Part shown: positions 1-8,742 of the stretch, one piece after another
How positions within the stretch are numbered: the first letter of the stretch is position 1
How the letters are laid out: each line of letters starts with the position of its first letter
NCBI GenBank assembly: GCA_039588275.1
Contig: JBDHAC010000010.1
Location: 32,001 to 96,000, forward strand
Reading direction: 5' to 3'
Length of the DNA stretch: 64,000 nucleotides
DNA from: Gemmatimonadota bacterium
Lineage (GTDB): Bacteria > Gemmatimonadota > Gemmatimonadetes > Palauibacterales > Palauibacteraceae
Position numbers and translations under genes: made by a program
The notes under the pieces: generated by a model
What the model saw: the letters and a program-made list of their open reading frames with translations, nothing else
Database searches by the model: none
Told to the model about the DNA's origin: nothing

Positions 1-3000
1 AGAGGAGCCCAACGGAGTCGAGCCATCGCGATCGATCTGCAACGCGCCGCCGAACCGACCGGGGATCCACGTCGGATCGTTGATGTCGGCCCCCGTCGTC
101 GAACCGAGCTGACCGTCCAGCCCCGCGACGAGTTCGGCCGCGACCTGTCCGGCCCCGTCGTCGAGCGTCCACAGCGCGGCCATGTCCGGGTCGACGGGCG
201 TCGAGCCTACCAGGACCGGCTCGTTGCGGTCGACCATCGTGCCGTCGGCGAGCTGGCCGCTGGAGTTGAAGCCCCAGCACATCGTCTCGCCGTCGTCTCG
301 AATCGCGCAGGTGTGCGACCCTCCAGCGCTGATCGACTCGAAGAGGTGCCCGCCTTCGACCATGACCGGCGTCCCACTCTGGCTATTCGTACCATCTCCG
401 AGCTGACCGGCATTGTTGAGGCCCGTGCACCAGGCCTCCCCCGCGAACGTGACCGCGCAGCTGTGCGCGAGTCCGGTGCTGATCGATTTCAGCCCCGAGA
501 GCGAGCCCGAGATCCCCGAGCGACCGTTGCCTCCGGAGCCCCAGCAGTACGGGCCGTCGTCCGTCGTGATCCCGCACGTGTGCGAGTTCGCCGCCTCCAG
601 GGACACGAACTTCCGCATTCCGGCGACCGTGACGGGGACCGGCTCGGACGTTACTCCGCCTCCGATCGTGGTGTTACCGAGTCGGTTGAAGCTGCCCCCC
701 GACCCCCAGCAGAACGCCGAGCCGTCACGCGTGATCGCGCACGTATGCCGCTGGGCGGCGCTCACAATCACGTAGGTCTGTGGCCCGTCGACCGAATCGA
801 CGACCTTCTGTGGGATGTTTCCGTTTGACGTGCCGCCGTCTCCCAGTTGGCCGACGTCGTTCGAGCCCCAGCAATAGACGTCACCGACATCGTTGACGGC
901 ACAGGCGTGGGTCTCACCCATGCTCACCCCCGTCCAGGTCTGCGGCCCTTCGATCGGATCGCTCGTCGCGACCGGGGTGTTGATGCCCACGTTCCCGCCG
1001 TTTCCGAGCTGACCGACGGTGCCGAATCCCCAGCAGTAGATGTCTCCGCTGGTCGTCAGCGCACAGCTGGACCGTCCGAAACCGCCACCCTGGCCACCGC
1101 CCGAGCTGACCCTGGCCCAGGTCTGCGGTCCCTGTGGCGGATCTTCGATCTTGACCGGAGCGGTCTCAGTAAACGTCATGCCGTTCCCCAGCGGGCCGCT
1201 GCCCCAGCACTCGATGTCGCCGGCCTGCGTGACCTGGCATGTGTGCGACGCGCCCGCGCTGACGGGAGAGGGCAAGAGGGGGGTAATGGGCGGGGTCGGG
1301 TCCGGCAGCCCCTGGACCGGGCTCGGGCTCGTGACGGCGCCGCCCGCGCTGCCGGTGCCGGCCTGGCCGGCCCAGTTACCCCCCCAGCATTCGATGGCGC
1401 CGGCCGGTGTCACGCCGCAGGTCGTCCAGTAACCCGCCGCGATTGCATCGTAGGGTCCACCAAGCACGGCTCCCGGTATCGTCTGATCCGACGTGCTGCC
1501 GTTCCCGAGTTGCCCGTTAGCCCCGTAGCCCCAGCACTCGACCGTCCCGCTCGACTGCCGACCGCATGTGTGGTAGCCCCCCAGCGCGATTTCATCATAC
1601 GGCCCCCCCTGGACCTGTACCGGTATCGATTGTTTGTTTGTCGTCGTGCCGTCCCCGCGCTGCCCGAAGTTTCCGCGACCCCAGCACTCGACCGTCCCGC
1701 TCGACTGCCGGCCGCACGCATGATCGAAGCCGATGCTGATCTCGTCGTACGGGCCACCCTGGACCTGTACCGGTGTCGATTGGCGAAGTGTCGTCGTGCC
1801 GTCCCCGCGCTGCCCGTTAGCCCCCCACCCCCAGCACTCGACCATCCCGCTCGACTGCCGGCCGCACGTGGTCGAGCCGCCGGCCCGGATCTCATCGAAC
1901 GGGCCGCCCTGGACCTGCACCGGTGTCGGTTGCCGACGTGTCGTCGTGCCGTTCCCAAGCTGCCCGTTAGCCCCGGATCCCCAGCACTCGACGGTACCAC
2001 TCGACTTCCGCCCGCAGGTGTGGAAAAAACCGGCTGCGATCTCATCGTACGGACCGCCCTGGACCTGCACCGGTGTCGGTTGCCGACGTGTCGTCGTGCC
2101 GTTCCCAAGCTGCCCGTTAGCCCCGGATCCCCAGCACTCGACGGTACCACTCGACTTCCGGGCGCACGTGTGCGACTGGCCGGCGCTGATTTCGTCGTAC
2201 GGGTCGCCCTGCACCTGAACCGGCCTGGCGGAGCTGACGAGGGTTCCATCCCCCAGCTGCCCGGAGCGGTTGTCCCCCCAGCAGAAGGCGTCGCCATTCA
2301 CGAGCGCGCAGGTGTGAGAACCTCCTCCCGTAACGCCCACCGCCTTGGTGCTGAAGCCCTCGATCTGAGCGGTAACGGTGTTCGCGTCGAAGTCGATCAC
2401 GGTCGGGAGCTCGATCCACTGCCCGTTCTCCTCCGTGTAGATCGCCAGCCGCGTGATGTCCGCGTCCGGCGGAATCTGAGCCTCGTCGAAGCTGAGCGTC
2501 AGGTCCACCGGCTCGTCGAACGTGGTCCCGTCGGGCCCGAACTCGTACACGCTGCCCTGCAGCGCCTGCACCTCCGCTGGGATTCCGCTCAGGTCCGTCA
2601 CCGGGTCGACCGTGATGCCTACCTCCTCGCTCAACGCGCCGGCCGGGACGTCGAGCACCACGTCTCCGTCCTCCGCCGTGATCGTGACGGGATCGCTTCC
2701 GACCACGAACACCGCGCCCTCCTCAATGCGGAACTTGATCGGGAGCGTGCGGCCATCCTTGAGCAGGATGTACTCGTCCGTATCCACGTTCTTCAGCTGG
2801 TTGCCGCCGCTCACTGCATCTACATCAGCGTAGCCCAGCACCGTCCCGGCCACGCTCACGATGATTCGGTATGTCTTCTGATCATCCAGCACGAACTCGT
2901 CGGTGTGCCAGTTCACGACGTAGTGCTCGTTCGCCGGCTCCATCCGGACCGTCTCCGAGCCGGGGCCCGTATCCATCGTGAACAGCGCCGGCTCCGGCCC

Positions 3001-3354
3001 GAGGTCCAGGCAGTCGGTCACCTGGGGCGGGTCCGAGGTCTCGAACACCAGCTCGCACACCTCGACCTGAGGCGAAAGCGACCCGTCGAAGGCCCCCTCC
3101 ACCGTCGGGTCCGGGACCATCGGCGGCAGGAAATAGAAGTGCTCGATGGCCAGGCTGTGGGCCGCATCGGCGATCTCCGCCGACGGCCCGGGTGTCGCCA
3201 CGGGAGGTCCTCCAACGAGCCCGGCCCCGGGTCCGAGGACCGCCTGGTCCCGACACGCCGACGCCGTAATCGCTGCGCACAGCGCGATAATCGGCGCGAT
3301 TGAGGGAAGGCTCCGGCGATGCTTGCCGGTCGAGTGTGAGCGCGCGTACGACAT
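1..3354 (-). CDS. Large secreted lipoprotein: N-terminal domain, ZU5-like domain, 14 RCC1/BLIP-II repeats (two 7-bladed propellers), then the start of a LamG/ConA-like domain; 3' end runs off the window
   Basis: Absent from the ORF track because there is no stop in the window; translated by hand. ATG at 3354 follows AGGAGG. Lipobox-like ALCAAITASAC; HFYFLPPMV; ZU5-like LDVPAGALSEEVGITV...YEFGPDGTTFDEPVDLTL; 14 C(W/T)G-containing repeats (GxxHTC...CWGxxxxGQLGxG); ALWTLDDGAG...WIPGRFGGALQID at the window edge. Confidence 0.9.
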   Translation of the reverse strand, partial: MSYARSHSTGKHRRSLPSIAPIIALCAAITASACRDQAVLGPGAGLVGGPPVATPGPSAEIADAAHSLAIEHFYFLPPMVPDPTVEGAFDGSLSPQVEVCELVFETSDPPQVTDCLDLGPEPALFTMDTGPGSETVRMEPANEHYVVNWHTDEFVLDDQKTYRIIVSVAGTVLGYADVDAVSGGNQLKNVDTDEYILLKDGRTLPIKFRIEEGAVFVVGSDPVTITAEDGDVVLDVPAGALSEEVGITVDPVTDLSGIPAEVQALQGSVYEFGPDGTTFDEPVDLTLSFDEAQIPPDADITRLAIYTEENGQWIELPTVIDFDANTVTAQIEGFSTKAVGVTGGGSHTCALVNGDAFCWGDNRSGQLGDGTLVSSARPVQVQGDPYDEISAGQSHTCARKSSGTVECWGSGANGQLGNGTTTRRQPTPVQVQGGPYDEIAAGFFHTCGRKSSGTVECWGSGANGQLGNGTTTRRQPTPVQVQGGPFDEIRAGGSTTCGRQSSGMVECWGWGANGQRGDGTTTLRQSTPVQVQGGPYDEISIGFDHACGRQSSGTVECWGRGNFGQRGDGTTTNKQSIPVQVQGGPYDEIALGGYHTCGRQSSGTVECWGYGANGQLGNGSTSDQTIPGAVLGGPYDAIAAGYWTTCGVTPAGAIECWGGNWAGQAGTGSAGGAVTSPSPVQGLPDPTPPITPLLPSPVSAGASHTCQVTQAGDIECWGSGPLGNGMTFTETAPVKIEDPPQGPQTWARVSSGGGQGGGFGRSSCALTTSGDIYCWGFGTVGQLGNGGNVGINTPVATSDPIEGPQTWTGVSMGETHACAVNDVGDVYCWGSNDVGQLGDGGTSNGNIPQKVVDSVDGPQTYVIVSAAQRHTCAITRDGSAFCWGSGGSFNRLGNTTIGGGVTSEPVPVTVAGMRKFVSLEAANSHTCGITTDDGPYCWGSGGNGRSGISGSLSGLKSISTGLAHSCAVTFAGEAWCTGLNNAGQLGDGTNSQSGTPVMVEGGHLFESISAGGSHTCAIRDDGETMCWGFNSSGQLADGTMVDRNEPVLVGSTPVDPDMAALWTLDDGAGQVAAELVAGLDGQLGSTTGADINDPTWIPGRFGGALQIDRDGSTPLGSS
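1531..2280. repeat. Intragenic tandem array of five 150-bp RCC1 blade units
   Basis: Units start with CCAGCACTCGAC at 1531, 1681, 1831, 1981 and 2131. 1904-2010 is identical to 2054-2160 (107 bp). Confidence 0.95.
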
Positions 3355-3473
3355 GTCGCCTCCTGGGTTCCGGGTATCGCCCGGGACGCGGCCTTCCTAG
3401 CTTCCCACCCGGAACAGGGCAGCACGGAAGCAAGGAGGACCGCGTTCCACGGGCCAATCGCTGCAACCGTCGC

Positions 3474-3529
3474 AGGCTAACCCGGGCCCGTGACATCGCC
3501 GTGAAACCGGCGTGACACCTCCTGTCACG
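3474..3529 (-). promoter_or_regulatory. SARP/OmpR-type operator-promoter: three heptamers at 11-bp period plus a -10 box, and one inverted heptamer
   Basis: Minus strand reads TGTCACG-CCGG-TTTCACG-GCGA-TGTCACG (3517-3489), 9 nt, then TAGCCT (3479-3474). An inverted TGTCACG lies at 3523-3529 on the plus strand. Confidence 0.7.
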
Positions 3530-3555
3530 CCCGGTTGTTGGATGGAGTACCGCGT

Positions 3556-6291
3556 TTGATCCGACTTTCCTTACTGGGGCCGACCACTTGCCTGGACCCG
3601 TCCGGGGCCGACCTGGAGCGGGTGGTTCGATCCCCGAAACGGCTGGCGCTCCTCTCCTACCTCGCGGCGGCTTCCCCGCACGGCTTCCACCGACGTGACA
3701 CCCTCCTCGGCCTGTTCTGGCCGGAGTCCGACCAGAAGCGCGCCCGCGGTGCCTTGCGGCAGACCGTCCGACACCTGCGCAGCGACCTAGGCGATGTAGT
3801 GGTGAGTCGCGGGCAGGAGGAGTTGGGCTTGGACTGGGATCGCTTCTGGTGCGACGCCGTCGCCTTCGAGGAGGCGCTGGACGAGGGCCGGGTCCCGGAC
3901 GCGATCGAGCTCTATCAGCGCGACCTGCTCGACGGGTTTTACTTGTCGGGCACTCCCGAGTTCGAGCGCTGGCTGGACCGGGAGCGGCGCCGGCTCCAGC
4001 GCCGGGGGGCGGAAGCCGCCTGGGCGTTTGCCGGTCAATTGCAGGAGCCGAGCGAGGCAGCGCGCTGGGCACGGAGGGCTGCACGGTTTACTCCTCGCGG
4101 AGAGACTGCGGTTCGCCGGCTCATGCAGTTCCTGGACGCGCGTGGGGACGCGGTCGGTGCCCTGCGCGAGTACGAGCGCTTCCGCGTGCGTGTGCACGAA
4201 GAGCTGGGCGCGGGGCCCGGGTCGGAGACCGCAGCGCTGGCGACCGCGATCCGAGAAGGTACCAACGTCCCGACGAGCCAGCCGGCAAAGGTCGAGGGAG
4301 AGGCGCCGAAAGAGGGTCCGACGTCCCCCGAGCTCGATGACGAGGCGTCGGCGCAGGACACGAGTGCTACTCCGAGGCGTCGAGGGCTGGCGCTCCCGGT
4401 CAGCGTCGGCAGCACCGCTCCGATCGTCGCATCACGCGCGCTCACCGGAGAGACCGCGACCCTCGCGGACGGAATCCACTCCCTCACGCAGGAGATCGAA
4501 ATCCGACCGCATCGTCTTTCGGCCTTTGAAGGCGCCCTCATGGCCGTCGGTATCGGCGTCGCGCTGCTGGCGACTCTCGGCACCGCGCGCCTTATCAACG
4601 ATGTGGGTGATGGCATACGCTTCCGCGCGGCGATGAGGATCACCGACAGTGAGGGTCTCGAGATCCAGCCGGCCCTGTCCCCAAGCGGGGATCGGGTCGC
4701 GTACGTGACCGGGCAACTCAGCGCGACGCGCGTGGAGGTACGCCGAGTATCGGGCGGCCGTCCCGTTCGACTGACGAGTGAGCTTCGGGGCACACACCGC
4801 TCGCCGACGTGGTCTCCGGACGGAGAGCGGGTGGCCTTCATCACCCACGAGGTGAGCGGCGCCTCGACGTTGTACGCGGTGCCGGCCACGGGAGGAGCCC
4901 CCCGAGTCCTGTTGCGCGCCGAGCCCAGTCCCGCCGGGCTGTGGGGACTCAGCTGGTCACCGGATGGGAGGCGGATCGCACTCAAACGTGACCGGAGCCT
5001 TTACACGCTCGACACAGACACGGGCGAGCTGACACACCTCACCGACGCGTGGGCACCTCACTCGCTCGCCTGGTCACCCCGGGGTGACCGGATCGCGTTC
5101 GTGTCCGAGAACTCCGGGTACCCGTACGGCTCCAACATTGCGCCGAGCTCCGTCTGGGTCGTGCCGGCGATAGGGGGAGAAGCAAGACGCATCACGTCCG
5201 GGGGTGACTTGAACCAGAGTCCAGTCTGGTGGCCCGATGGGCGTCGACTCCTCTTCATCTCGGACCGTGACGGCACGCCCGACATCTACTCGCAAAGGCT
5301 CGACGATTCGTCCGAGCCGGCCGGTTCCCCGGTCCGGCTGACCTCGGGCCTCCAACCGCTGAGCTTCTCCCTGTCCGCCGATGGCTCGCGGCTCACCTAC
5401 TCGGTGCCAACGGTCGATGCAGATATATGGGTTCTCCCCATGCACGAGGGGAACGACGACCAAGTGCCCCCCCGCCTGGCGGACGCGACCCGGCTCCTCG
5501 ACACTCGCCAGGTCATCGAGACCGTCAGCCTGTCACCCGACGGGGCGTGGCTGGCGTACGACTCGAACGCCAGCGGGAACCAGGACATCTACAAGGTCAG
5601 CGTGGACGGCGGGGAGCCGATCCAGCTCACACGCGATCCGGCGGATGACTTCGCGCCCGAATGGTCACCGGACGGGAGCGAGCTCGTGTTCTACTCGTTC
5701 AGAAGCGGGAACCGCGACCTGTTCGTGACCGACGCCGACGGGCGGCGGGTGGAGCAGGTGACGACGAGCGACGGCTCCGACGCGTTCCCCAGCTGGTCAC
5801 CCGACGGCGACGCGATCGTGTACCAGCACAACCCCTCCGAGGCCCCTGGAGACTTCCAGACCCTTCGCCGGGTGGAACGAGACCGCCCCGGAGCCGATTG
5901 GAGCCCCCCGGTCCAACTCAACCGGACCTTAAGCGGGAGGCCGCGTTCGTCGCCGGACGGTCGCTGGATCGCATACTGGGGGCTCGGCAACCTATCGGTC
6001 CTATCGGTGACGACGGGCGAGGAGTCGGTGCTGCTACGGGGCGCGTCAGGCAGGGGCGCGCCTGTGTGGTCCGCGGACAGCGAATCGCTGCTCTTCGCCG
6101 CCAGGCTGGACGGTGTCTCCGCGATCTGGAGGATCCCGAGAACCGGGGGTCAGCCTCAGCCCGTAGCGGTGGATGGGGGTCCCGCATTCGTCCGGTTCTG
6201 GTTCGACACGGATGGGGAGGAGATCGTGTTCACCCGGCTCGAGTCCCAGGAGGCCGACATCTGGGTGGTCGAGTTGGAGGGCCACCCCTAG
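3556..6291 (+). CDS. Membrane-anchored transcriptional regulator: SARP-like wHTH + BTAD, linker, single TM helix, TolB-like PD40 beta-propeller repeats
   Basis: TTG start after GGAG (MIRLSLLG). SPKRLALLSYL...RRDTLLGLFWPE...LRQ and DLLDGFYL...EFERWL are AfsR/BTAD-like. TM ALMAVGIGVALLATLG; many PxWSPDG repeats. Confidence 0.88.
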   Translation: MIRLSLLGPTTCLDPSGADLERVVRSPKRLALLSYLAAASPHGFHRRDTLLGLFWPESDQKRARGALRQTVRHLRSDLGDVVVSRGQEELGLDWDRFWCDAVAFEEALDEGRVPDAIELYQRDLLDGFYLSGTPEFERWLDRERRRLQRRGAEAAWAFAGQLQEPSEAARWARRAARFTPRGETAVRRLMQFLDARGDAVGALREYERFRVRVHEELGAGPGSETAALATAIREGTNVPTSQPAKVEGEAPKEGPTSPELDDEASAQDTSATPRRRGLALPVSVGSTAPIVASRALTGETATLADGIHSLTQEIEIRPHRLSAFEGALMAVGIGVALLATLGTARLINDVGDGIRFRAAMRITDSEGLEIQPALSPSGDRVAYVTGQLSATRVEVRRVSGGRPVRLTSELRGTHRSPTWSPDGERVAFITHEVSGASTLYAVPATGGAPRVLLRAEPSPAGLWGLSWSPDGRRIALKRDRSLYTLDTDTGELTHLTDAWAPHSLAWSPRGDRIAFVSENSGYPYGSNIAPSSVWVVPAIGGEARRITSGGDLNQSPVWWPDGRRLLFISDRDGTPDIYSQRLDDSSEPAGSPVRLTSGLQPLSFSLSADGSRLTYSVPTVDADIWVLPMHEGNDDQVPPRLADATRLLDTRQVIETVSLSPDGAWLAYDSNASGNQDIYKVSVDGGEPIQLTRDPADDFAPEWSPDGSELVFYSFRSGNRDLFVTDADGRRVEQVTTSDGSDAFPSWSPDGDAIVYQHNPSEAPGDFQTLRRVERDRPGADWSPPVQLNRTLSGRPRSSPDGRWIAYWGLGNLSVLSVTTGEESVLLRGASGRGAPVWSADSESLLFAARLDGVSAIWRIPRTGGQPQPVAVDGGPAFVRFWFDTDGEEIVFTRLESQEADIWVVELEGHP

Positions 6292-6492: not shown

Positions 6493-6906
6493 CTACACCT
6501 TCAGCGCCGCGGCCGCTCGCTCGTAGTCTTCGGGCTTCACGTACAGGACGTAACCGTAGCTCCCGCTGTCGTCCGCCACCCCGCTCGAGGCGAACACGTT
6601 GACGTTGGCCTGATACAGACGCTCGTGGACCCTTGCCAGCGCCCCCAACTCGTCATCGCCCTGGACGAGCAGCGCCGGGTTCGGGCCATCCAGCTTCACG
6701 CCGGCGTTCTTGGCGGCCCTCTGAAGCTGTCCCGAGTCGTGGGGAAAGAGCGTGAGCTGTGCGCGCATCGGCCCGACCGGCACGGCAGTGAACGCTACGA
6801 GGTTGATCCCTTGATCGGCGAGCGCGGAAAGGAGCGAATACGCCGCACCCGGCTCATCTCGAACGGTGGTGTAGAAGTAGTCGACCCGTCTGATCGTGTA
6901 GGCCAT
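6493..6906 (-). CDS. ACT-domain-like protein (two ACT repeats)
   Basis: ATG after GGGGAG. VRDEPGAAYSLLSALADQGINLVAF and GDDELGALARVHERLYQANVNV are ACT-like. Confidence 0.75.
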   Translation of the reverse strand: MAYTIRRVDYFYTTVRDEPGAAYSLLSALADQGINLVAFTAVPVGPMRAQLTLFPHDSGQLQRAAKNAGVKLDGPNPALLVQGDDELGALARVHERLYQANVNVFASSGVADDSGSYGYVLYVKPEDYERAAAALKV

Positions 6907-7161: not shown

Positions 7162-8742
7162 ATGACGGAATCCCACTCGAAAGAAGGCCCGTCCTCGCGA
7201 TCGACCGGGACGCTCCCACTCCTCGCGATTCCGCTCCTACTCTCGGCGCCCGGCGCGCTGATGGCGCAGACCCCGGAGCCCGAGCCAGGTACGGAAGCGG
7301 AGTCGCACGCACCGGGGACACTCCTGGTCTCGTCGGTCGAGATTCCGCGCGAGGAAGGCGGTGTGTACGAGGCCGAGCGGGGTGTGCTGTACGTTCCGGC
7401 CAATCGGTCGACGCCCGGCACGGGGGTGTTCGCTCTGGAGTTCCACCGCTTCCCCGCCTCGAGCGAAGCGGACCCCGCCACGCCCCCGATCTTCCAGCTG
7501 AACGGCGGGCCGGGGTGGCCCGGCTTCGGCGACCGGCTCGAGCGCTCCGGTTTCTTCGAAGAGAACATCGAGCCCCGCATCCGGCTGGCGGATGTGGTCG
7601 TCGTCGGCCAGCGCGGGATCGGCTCGTCCGGTCCCGATACCGCATGCGAGGCGGCGGAGCCGCTGGGCGCCGAGGTGGAGCCCACTCTCGAGGCGCGCGC
7701 CACGCAGATGTTTCTGGCCACCCAACGGTGCCGCGCGAAGTGGGAGGCCGAGGGCGTGGACCTCAGCGGGCTCACCGTGATCGAGGCGGCCGCGGATGTG
7801 AACGATGTCCGCGAAGCCCTCGGCTACGACAAGATCCAGGTGCACGGCGGGAGCTTCGGGTCGCACTGGGGCATGACCGTGCTGCGCTACTACCCCGAGA
7901 TCGTCGAGCGCGCGGTCCTGAACGGCATGGAGGGCCCCGACCACACGTACGACATGCCCGGTTGGGTCCTCAAGGCTCTGGAGCGTACGGCGGCTGACGC
8001 GGAGGCGTCCGGCGCCCTGGGCGACCGGGTTCCCGAGGGCGGCCTCATCGCCGCCTTCCGCGAGCTGATCGAGCGCGCCGACTCCGAACCCATCGCAGTT
8101 CGTATCAAGCGGCCCGGGTCGCGGGATTCGGTCGACGTGATCCTCACGGGTGACGATTTCCGAGCGCTGTGGGGTGGCTTTACGCCGAGCCTGCGTGGGC
8201 ATCGCATGGCCGGCTGGCCGGCGGACATCATCCGGCTGTACGAGGGAGATCTTCGGGTGCCCGCCAACCGTCGCCTCGCGGCGCGGACCCGCGCTCCCGG
8301 GGTCCCCACGGCCGCGTTCTTCATGTTGGATTGCAGCTCTGGAATCAGCCCCGCCCGAGCGGCTCGGATGCTCGAGGATCCGGGCGCCGAGGTCGTAGGC
8401 GCCCTGGGCTGGTTCTATCAGGTGACGTGTCCCGCGTGGGACGCGGATTTGGGTGAGGAGTTCCGGGAGAACTTCGACACCGACATCCCGACCGTCATCG
8501 TCCACGGCAACTGGGATGTCTCGACGCCGCTCGAGAACGCGCTCGAGCTCGTCCCCCACTTCAAGGTGAGCCGCTTCGTGCTGGTGGACCGTGGGACGCA
8601 CGGGGCGCTCCGCGAAGCCCTCGATGCTTCGGATGAGTTCCGTCTGGCACTCGAACGGTTCGTGACGACGGGCGACATGTTGGCCCTGCCCGAGAAGGTG
8701 GTGCTCCCACCCCTTGAGTGGAGACAGCCACCCGAGCGCTAA
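7162..8742 (+). CDS. Secreted alpha/beta hydrolase (TAP-like/S33 family)
   Basis: Signal peptide; LNGGPG, QRGIGSS, GGSFG nucleophile elbow, GNWDVSTP, GTHG. Confidence 0.85.
   Translation: MTESHSKEGPSSRSTGTLPLLAIPLLLSAPGALMAQTPEPEPGTEAESHAPGTLLVSSVEIPREEGGVYEAERGVLYVPANRSTPGTGVFALEFHRFPASSEADPATPPIFQLNGGPGWPGFGDRLERSGFFEENIEPRIRLADVVVVGQRGIGSSGPDTACEAAEPLGAEVEPTLEARATQMFLATQRCRAKWEAEGVDLSGLTVIEAAADVNDVREALGYDKIQVHGGSFGSHWGMTVLRYYPEIVERAVLNGMEGPDHTYDMPGWVLKALERTAADAEASGALGDRVPEGGLIAAFRELIERADSEPIAVRIKRPGSRDSVDVILTGDDFRALWGGFTPSLRGHRMAGWPADIIRLYEGDLRVPANRRLAARTRAPGVPTAAFFMLDCSSGISPARAARMLEDPGAEVVGALGWFYQVTCPAWDADLGEEFRENFDTDIPTVIVHGNWDVSTPLENALELVPHFKVSRFVLVDRGTHGALREALDASDEFRLALERFVTTGDMLALPEKVVLPPLEWRQPPER

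Follow-up and report, generated by a model that had tools for sequence, protein, structure and literature searches.

The window analysed here, a stretch of 64,000 nucleotides (C10:32001-96000) from a Gemmatimonadota genome of 4.1 Mb and 67% GC whose assembly is 86% complete, carries near its left edge two divergent genes, one for a predicted transmembrane regulator of the SARP type (3556..6291, forward strand) and the other for a large lipoprotein (reverse strand). We propose, with a probability of about 0.8, that the membrane-tethered SARP activates the divergent lipoprotein gene via three TCACG repeats that precede a TAGCCT -10 element in the spacer between the two genes. This reading, drawn from sequence comparison, builds on the domain content of the regulator, its conserved hydrophobic helix, the geometry of the repeats, which is conserved with the module, and a promoter pattern found throughout the family. 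The named relatives of the regulator belong to the Gemmatimonadales and Gemmatimonadota.

Architecture of the regulator

The regulator gene encodes a protein of 911 aa from a TTG start with a GGAG motif 10 nt upstream. The preliminary description of this DNA had recognized a winged helix-turn-helix and BTAD head, one transmembrane helix and PD40 propellers, arranged in a topology like that of ToxR and CadC, and Pfam, profile comparison, hydropathy in 62 of 62 homologues and an AlphaFold2 model all bear out this order of parts. An OmpR-type winged-helix DNA-binding domain (aa 1-92, 3556..3831), with its recognition helix at aa 62-75, is followed by a BTAD domain (aa 93-236, 3832..4263; Pfam E 2.8e-9), a predicted disordered cytoplasmic linker (aa 240-322, 4273..4521; predicted local distance difference test, pLDDT, < 50), a single predicted transmembrane helix (aa 323-348, 4522..4599) and a double PD40 beta-propeller (aa 355-908, 4618..6279; Pfam E 1.3e-47), the predicted periplasmic sensor. 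The linker varies in both sequence and length between paralogues, and no conserved cleavage motif was seen in it. When the domain assignments were checked against profile models, BTAD exceeded its cut-off, but Trans_reg_C (aa 23-80, E 2.6e-4) stayed below the curated one, although 13 of 18 aligned relatives match it.

A single-sequence search of the PDB with aa 1-245 gave no match, a profile being needed. The profile built from 20 N-termini matches EmbR (2fez, E 2.2e-15) and AfsR (8hvr, E 1.4e-11) over positions 4-239, the whole SARP head; a profile of the winged helix gives weak matches to the DNA-binding domains of CadC and ToxR (E 0.025-0.05). W55 and R75 are invariant and match W74 and R94 of AfsR, while R68, Q69 and H73 of the recognition helix align with AfsR R87, T88 and R92, the T88 position thus being occupied by Gln and the R92 position by His. 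The AfsR-orthologue model NF053617 (SARP + NOD + TPR) does not match the window protein and gives a paralogue 31 of 1430 bits; no P-loop motif was found.

In the AlphaFold2 model (62 sequences), the SARP domain spans aa 1-236 with block pLDDT values of 81-97 and is followed by a disordered segment (240-328), one helix (329-348, low pLDDT), the lone one of its kind, and the double propeller (355-908). The best 19-residue hydropathy of the protein is 1.92, at aa 323, as against 2.38 in the paralogue encoded next to the window. A hydrophobic helix with a value of at least 1.6 occurs in all 62 aligned homologues, only three of which have a second such stretch. Given a cytoplasmic DNA-binding head and one helix, the propeller is likely to be periplasmic. 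Its Foldseek matches are to tricorn protease and TolB, TolB/Pal complexes being among them; with the TolB model TIGR02800 it scores 222.8 bits, below the cut-off of 343.15. The same propeller type is found on Ser/Thr kinase homologues, and public annotations label such proteins 'Tol biopolymer transport component/SARP activator'.

Operator and promoter in the spacer

The spacer carries three TCACG direct repeats with an 11-bp period on the reverse strand (3515-3511, 3504-3500 and 3493-3489; 3489..3515 in all), a predicted SARP operator. They are followed on the same strand by a predicted -10 element, TAGCCT (3474..3479), which is invariant in the paralogue and agrees with the family promoter model described below. 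The gap between the last TCACG core and TAGCCT is 9 nt, or 8 nt when the heptamer GTCACGG is considered, so that three repeats of 11-bp period standing 9 nt before a TAGCCT box that faces the lipoprotein gene, as previously described, are indeed present. TTCACG (3505-3500) occupies the -35 position and is separated by 20 nt from TAGCCT, which would place the transcription start of the lipoprotein gene at about 3467 on the reverse strand. According to the AfsR study (PMC10936776), the repeats of SARP targets are spaced by 11 or 22 bp and the final one stands 8 bp from the -10; in the afsS promoter, TTCAGC occupies -38..-33 and the -10 element reaches as far as -7. The arrangement TTCACG-20 nt-TAGCCT in the window thus has the same register as the AfsR-activated afsS promoter.

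The pattern of array, gap and TAGCCT occurs once in the window and in none of 100 shuffles. A strict version of it matches just two places in the 4.1-Mb genome, the spacer of the window and that of the paralogous module, a count that is post hoc since the pattern was derived from the site itself. A fourth copy of the repeat and an inverted one at 3523-3529 were discarded, as they are not kept in the paralogue. A scan for consensus sigma-70 promoters over L001:5800-20000 returned none, which is expected of an activator-dependent promoter and is uninformative.

Conservation of the module

Directly to the left of the window lies a tandem duplicate of the whole module (C10:24275-31355; L001:6275-13355). 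Its regulator, of 865 aa, has the same SARP-transmembrane helix-PD40 organization and is about 50% identical to that of the window; its lipoprotein, of 1427 aa, consists of an unnamed N-terminal domain (NTD) also present in the window lipoprotein, a ZU5-like domain, RCC1 repeats, a YVTN-type propeller and further RCC1 repeats. In the spacer of the duplicate, three TCAC(G/A) cores are retained together with the 9-nt gap and TAGCCT, while the bases between the cores differ. Cross-talk between the two copies is likely.

At three further loci, the gene for a closely related PD40 regulator accompanies one for an NTD lipoprotein, and all have the array and the -10 at the same distance. At L242 (regulator 45% identical) the divergent lipoprotein carries NTD and RCC1, and at L223, also divergent, NTD and LamG. 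At L222 the regulator is convergent with, and downstream of, an NTD+LamG lipoprotein gene, and yet four repeats stay before the latter, so that the array is tied to the lipoprotein promoter. The partners of the regulators of this sub-lineage are thus divergent at four loci and convergent at one. At L362, a three-core array, a -10 and a leader stand before the gene for an NTD lipoprotein; the closest SARP lies at a distance of 28 kb, which suggests that this promoter is controlled in trans.

In the same genome, three SARP-transmembrane paralogues with non-PD40 sensors (L002, L003 and L004, on C14, C19 and C5) each face a lipoprotein-like gene, and their spacers each have a repeat sequence of their own, unlike that of the window. 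The (T/G)TCACG motif, which the preliminary description suggested looking for beside BTAD-transmembrane genes at large, is confined to one sub-lineage.

A promoter pattern shared by the family

The SARP head is present in 120 of 151 sampled genomes, with 1-16 matches per genome among close relatives. The genome of the window has ten BTAD matches, five of which are genes of the head-linker-helix-sensor type. A genome_contigs scan returned only two loci. For promoter comparison, 100 regions were fetched around profile matches in 30 related genomes, to which four loci of the own genome were added. The 121 profile matches were sorted into 79 of a transmembrane class, defined by a hydrophobic stretch at aa 250-380, 20 of a cytoplasmic class, in which this stretch was not found, and 10 others, 7 partial and 5 N-fused matches being dropped. 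The sensors behind the helix in 37 regulators are TPR (23), PD40 (3) or unassigned (11).

A 4-mer repeated at a lag of 11 was found within 170 nt upstream of 58 of 76 transmembrane genes, as against 29 of 72 control stretches; the count for lag 22 is 45, and those for the remaining lags are 22-40. In the set clustered at 60%, a lag of 11 separates 5-mer pairs in 14 of 37 cases, compared with 1-6 for other lags. The enrichment of repeats beside BTAD-transmembrane genes that had been anticipated is thus observed. It is also observed beside cytoplasmic BTAD-type genes (17 of 20), and the arrays are therefore a trait of SARPs rather than of membrane attachment. Applied without a seed to 52 representatives, expectation-maximization (EM) returned three cores spaced by 11 bp together with a TA..AT hexamer, all on the strand that points away from the regulator gene; the posterior exceeded 0.8 in 35 of the 52.

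The resulting matrix was then fixed and applied to 80 new representatives of less than 65% identity to the training set; only this scoring is truly held out, the earlier within-sample scoring having been seeded from a diluted all-data matrix. Sites above 8 bits were present in 25 of 51 spacers of the transmembrane class, as compared with 6 of 51 on the opposite strand and 1 of 49 controls; for the class of others the corresponding numbers were 12 of 25, 0 of 25 and 0 of 24. By heuristic gene calls, a lipoprotein-like gene is faced by 36 of the 61 transmembrane regulators that have such a site, by 11 of the 42 that lack one and by 198 of 2906 background open reading frames.

The top family-type site in the genome (C2:97943, forward strand) lies just downstream of a Ser/Thr kinase-SARP fusion (L139:2018-4782; C2:95919-98782), which has no transmembrane helix after the head, and before a signal-peptide gene. 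The second best (L140:5603-5650, on C47) precedes a lipoprotein-like gene, and a gene for a cytoplasmic BTAD-ATPase lies about 10 kb from it. A paralogue group (L094, L098, L114, L116, L124 and L135) has long CTGAT-type repeat arrays farther from the regulator start.

Recognition helix and operator sequence

The sequence of the repeats appears to change in step with the DNA-reading helix. When residue 68 is Arg, the cores are of the ACG type in 11 of 11 cases, as against 1 of 27 with another residue (within the sample, all-data seed). In the held-out set, with the core columns masked, the figures are 17 of 18 and 2 of 10, and in the combined count 27 of 28 and 3 of 35. Ser, Ala or Asn at this position accompany AT- or ACC-type cores. 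The aligned residue of AfsR, R87, lies over -35..-33 (PMC10936776). In a tree built without the helix, residue 68 changes nine times, and one Arg/ACG case (L002) lies inside a non-Arg clade. The pairs that are independent and lie on well-supported branches number only three, and none is opposite (sign test p 0.25), for which reason the covariation is suggestive and not proven.

Proposed mechanism and alternatives

The idea that a tethered SARP directly controls the divergent promoter, put forward in the preliminary description, is supported by the paralogous module, the three further loci, the held-out model, the afsS register, the helix covariation and the lack of a PhoB-like candidate. By analogy with AfsR, the SARP heads would align side by side over the -35 region, one per repeat, and the aligned heads would recruit sigma-70 RNA polymerase to the weak -10. 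A flexible linker of 80 aa would let the heads reach the DNA while the protein stays in the membrane. Less firmly, a peptide or protein bound extracytoplasmically by the propeller may cluster the tethered heads. The output would be a lipoprotein whose N-terminal domain is constant and whose binding domains can be exchanged.

Several findings weigh against this scheme, in addition to the small number of independent pairs behind the helix covariation. AfsR has Arg at the position in question together with an AGC core, and this Arg contacts the backbone (PMC10936776); the helix code is therefore not universal. No site above 8 bits was found in 26 of the 51 held-out spacers of the transmembrane class. 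The EM likelihood of a coding control region was 213, as compared with 254 for the real regions, and likelihood alone was accordingly rejected as a test. With the generic matrix, the two sites of the window type reach no more than 5.2 and 6.9 bits (within-sample leave-out, all-data seed), although each is the best site in its own spacer, and 400 positions of the genome exceed 9 bits, so that the generic model alone would miss sites of the window type. Further points of this kind, on the partner domain, the helix and the completeness of the genome, bear on particular alternatives and are taken up with them.

As a special case of the proposed scheme, the ligand of the propeller might be the NTD of the partner lipoprotein, in a role like that of ToxS or VtrC, in which case the regulator would monitor its own product. 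The NTD is the sole domain common to all five partners of the sub-lineage, while the C-terminal cargo varies, and TolB-type propellers bind a lipoprotein, as in the TolB/Pal complexes among the Foldseek matches. However, a divergent SARP lies within 1.5 kb at only 2 of 29 other NTD loci, and the strict array was found at none of the 29; neighbours at such loci include an ECF (extracytoplasmic function) sigma factor and kinase pair, a kinase and TPR proteins (L327, L339, L331, L342). Among nine PD40-type regulators with context, five have an NTD partner and four have none (L118, L120, L121 and the second L242 gene), and shared descent of a two-gene cassette would account equally well for the linkage. 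The NTD is thus not an obligate partner of SARPs, and we regard this idea as a doubtful, minority reading. Of similarly low probability is a scheme in which operator and target are the same and proteolysis in the linker or the helix releases a soluble SARP head. The disordered linker of 80 aa would suit it, and CadC, whose activation reportedly depends on proteolysis (PMC11484849), would provide a precedent; but neither the sequence nor the length of the linker is conserved, and no protease gene was seen in the module.

The remaining alternatives are considerably less probable. The array lies 41-67 nt before the regulator start, the beginning of 15 of 16 sites in relatives being 21-48 nt away from that point, so that the array probably overlaps the regulator's own promoter; it might then serve mainly to repress or activate the regulator gene, the lipoprotein being a bystander. 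This is unlikely, since the -10 is placed towards the lipoprotein gene and on its strand (25 versus 6 of 51) and the array stays with the lipoprotein gene both at L222, where the regulator is convergent, and at L362, where no SARP is adjacent. Similarly unlikely is that the hydrophobic stretch does not cross the membrane and that the protein is a cytoplasmic 'large SARP' whose propeller acts as an intracellular sensor, like the FHA domain of EmbR. The helix of the window regulator is only moderately hydrophobic (1.92) and of low pLDDT, and the positive-inside bias is weak, 35 of the 62 homologues having more positive residues before the helix, 16 more after it and 11 a tie. Yet the stretch is kept in every one of these homologues, reaches 2.38 in the paralogue, and is found at aa 250-380 in the 79 transmembrane-class relatives, by definition of that class, but not in the 20 cytoplasmic ones. 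OmpR/PhoB boxes are also 11-bp direct repeats, and a shared response regulator of this type could bind the array; as the genome is 86% complete, such a regulator, or another one, could be missing from the assembly. This was the binder that the preliminary description named as a threat to its proposal, and we consider it very improbable: in the 86%-complete assembly no OmpR/PhoB-type regulator was found, none of 27 PhoB-model matches reaches the DNA-binding domain, all five Trans_reg_C matches are SARPs, and paralogues within one genome carry different repeats, which follow the helix of the neighbouring regulator.

Beyond direct activation by the tethered SARP, one may imagine that the Gemmatimonadota possess a modular trans-envelope kit, made of SARP heads with a readable helix-operator code, swappable TPR or PD40 sensors and their own exported targets, in which the propeller would read the NTD of the induced lipoprotein as feedback, the leader hairpin described below would add control at the RNA level, and the kit as a whole would, in this genome, take the place of OmpR/PhoB two-component signalling, of which no member was found in the assembly. 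This wider picture is speculative, and we hold it to be improbable in its entirety.

The lipoprotein, its N-terminal domain and its leader

The lipoprotein gene (1..3354, reverse strand, ATG at 3354) extends 513 nt past the left edge of the window and encodes 1288 aa in full (C10:31488-35354). The product had been described as a divergent ZU5/RCC1/LamG lipoprotein of more than 1100 aa. Its length, the RCC1 repeats and LamG, the latter encoded past the window edge, are confirmed, but the ZU5-like domain (2488..2712) is only weak (Pfam E 0.031, 15 bits versus a cut-off of 21). The gene is preceded by a Shine-Dalgarno sequence, AGGAGG (3359..3364), which is conserved. The signal peptide (3253..3354) ends in a lipobox-like motif, non-canonical in having Ala at -3, with Cys34 after the hydrophobic stretch; a Cys after this stretch is kept in both paralogous lipoproteins, and by a loose regular expression a Cys motif precedes the NTD at 26 of 29 homologous loci. 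RCC1 repeats follow in two blocks (190..2334, aa about 341-1055, E 1.6e-64), and Laminin_G_3 (LamG) occupies aa 1120-1283 (E 4e-27). Near-identical internal RCC1 repeats of about 123 nt at 1700-2220 on the reverse strand suggest recent repeat expansion.

The NTD itself (2716..3180, reverse strand; aa 59-213, 155 aa) is a predicted beta-sandwich without a Pfam match (model pLDDT 91). It is common to all partners of this regulator sub-lineage, in which the cargo behind it is RCC1+LamG, RCC1+YVTN-type propeller+RCC1, RCC1, LamG and LamG, and it occurs in 76 of 401 genomes. No Foldseek match was obtained at E <= 0.001, matches in the Atlas were only to unnamed clusters with low recognition, and the best VIA matches (Z 5.2) are to Ig-like folds. 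These outcomes do not amount to a new fold.

The predicted leader of 113 nt folds into a hairpin of 76 nt (3379..3454, reverse strand), with z scores of -3.0 in the window, -4.5 in the paralogue and -3.8 at L242; the hairpin is likewise kept at L223 and L222. Its basal 15 pairs are 98.6% paired across five loci, and three pairs show double-sided, compensatory changes; 4 of 500 shuffles gave covariation as high, in an alignment of only five related rows. The best Rfam match was 22 bits (E 0.17) against a gathering threshold of 42.5. Searched with a covariance model built from the leader alone, 8 of 145 genomes gave matches, including two strong new ones, L362 and L354, so that the hairpin is known from seven loci. 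The copy at L354 (L354:1440-1676, G009:C6), at a contig end, combines a degenerate array with an intact hairpin and has no start codon after the Shine-Dalgarno sequence; it is possibly a relic. The hairpin was rejected as a feature of the whole family (z < -2 in 6 of 68) and as a dispersed repeat (2 copies in the genome).

Downstream of the regulator gene, a convergent gene for an ACT-domain protein (6493-6906, reverse strand) and one for a secreted, TAP-like alpha/beta hydrolase (7162-8742, forward strand) give no sign of belonging to the module.

Relation to known systems

The head of the window protein is the full-length winged-helix and BTAD head of SARPs such as AfsR of S. coelicolor (PDB 8hvr, 8k60 and 8jke) and EmbR of M. 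tuberculosis (PDB 2fez), but in contrast to these proteins, which continue with NOD+TPR or FHA, it ends in a transmembrane helix and a double PD40 propeller. The promoter resembles AfsR targets in its 11-bp direct repeats, in the distance of 8 bp from the last heptamer to the -10 and in the -35/-10 register of afsS (PMC10936776). The differences concern the base-reading positions (Q69 and H73 in place of T88 and R92), the number of repeats (three instead of two), the target, a lipoprotein, and the host, a member of the Gemmatimonadota. The N-terminal OmpR-type winged helix, the one transmembrane helix and the predicted C-terminal extracytoplasmic domain are shared with transmembrane transcriptional regulators (TTRs) of the ToxR/CadC type, from which the present system differs in its BTAD activator domain and its SARP-type promoter geometry. 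The sensor is related in sequence and fold to the PD40 propellers of TolB and tricorn, but differs from TolB in scoring below its cut-off, in being doubled and in being fused behind a transmembrane helix. As in the co-component systems ToxR/ToxS and VtrA/VtrC, the transmembrane regulator adjoins the gene for an exported partner. In those systems, however, the partner is co-transcribed downstream of the regulator, whereas the partner here, encoded divergently at 4 loci and convergently at 1, is the predicted target; furthermore, VtrC and ToxS have a lipocalin-like fold, while the conserved domain of the partner here is an Ig-like sandwich.

Proteins of this general make-up have been catalogued before. 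In the parts available to us of a survey of TTRs (PMC10269533), supplement 2 lists Trans_reg_C+PD40 TTRs and 321 PD40 TTRs, and 213 BTAD TTRs are listed, including Gemmatirosa J421_2152 (Trans_reg_C+BTAD, one transmembrane helix, 861 aa); the terms BTAD, SARP and PD40 have no occurrence in the main text to the extent that it was accessible. The combination of BTAD with PD40 was absent from the 60 BTAD rows covered, out of 214 in the supplement, and the remaining 154 could hold one. Searches of the open-access literature found no study of a transmembrane SARP. Transmembrane BTAD proteins are thus already present, without comment, in a published supplement; the kind is uncharacterised and its operator code is testable.

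Implications

SARPs are familiar as antibiotic regulators that act in the cytoplasm of actinomycetes. In the present case, the SARP head is predicted to be coupled to the cell envelope, and it has expanded in a phylum of which little is in culture; one cultured species, Gemmatirosa, has a listed member (J421_2152). Since the operators are legible in the sequence and vary from one paralogue to another, pairs of regulator and target are predictable and can be tested with the soluble head of 240 aa. The analysis also points to an unnamed family of lipoprotein domains and to a candidate structured leader RNA. Should the helix code hold true, it would provide a natural set of orthogonal membrane sensor-activators.

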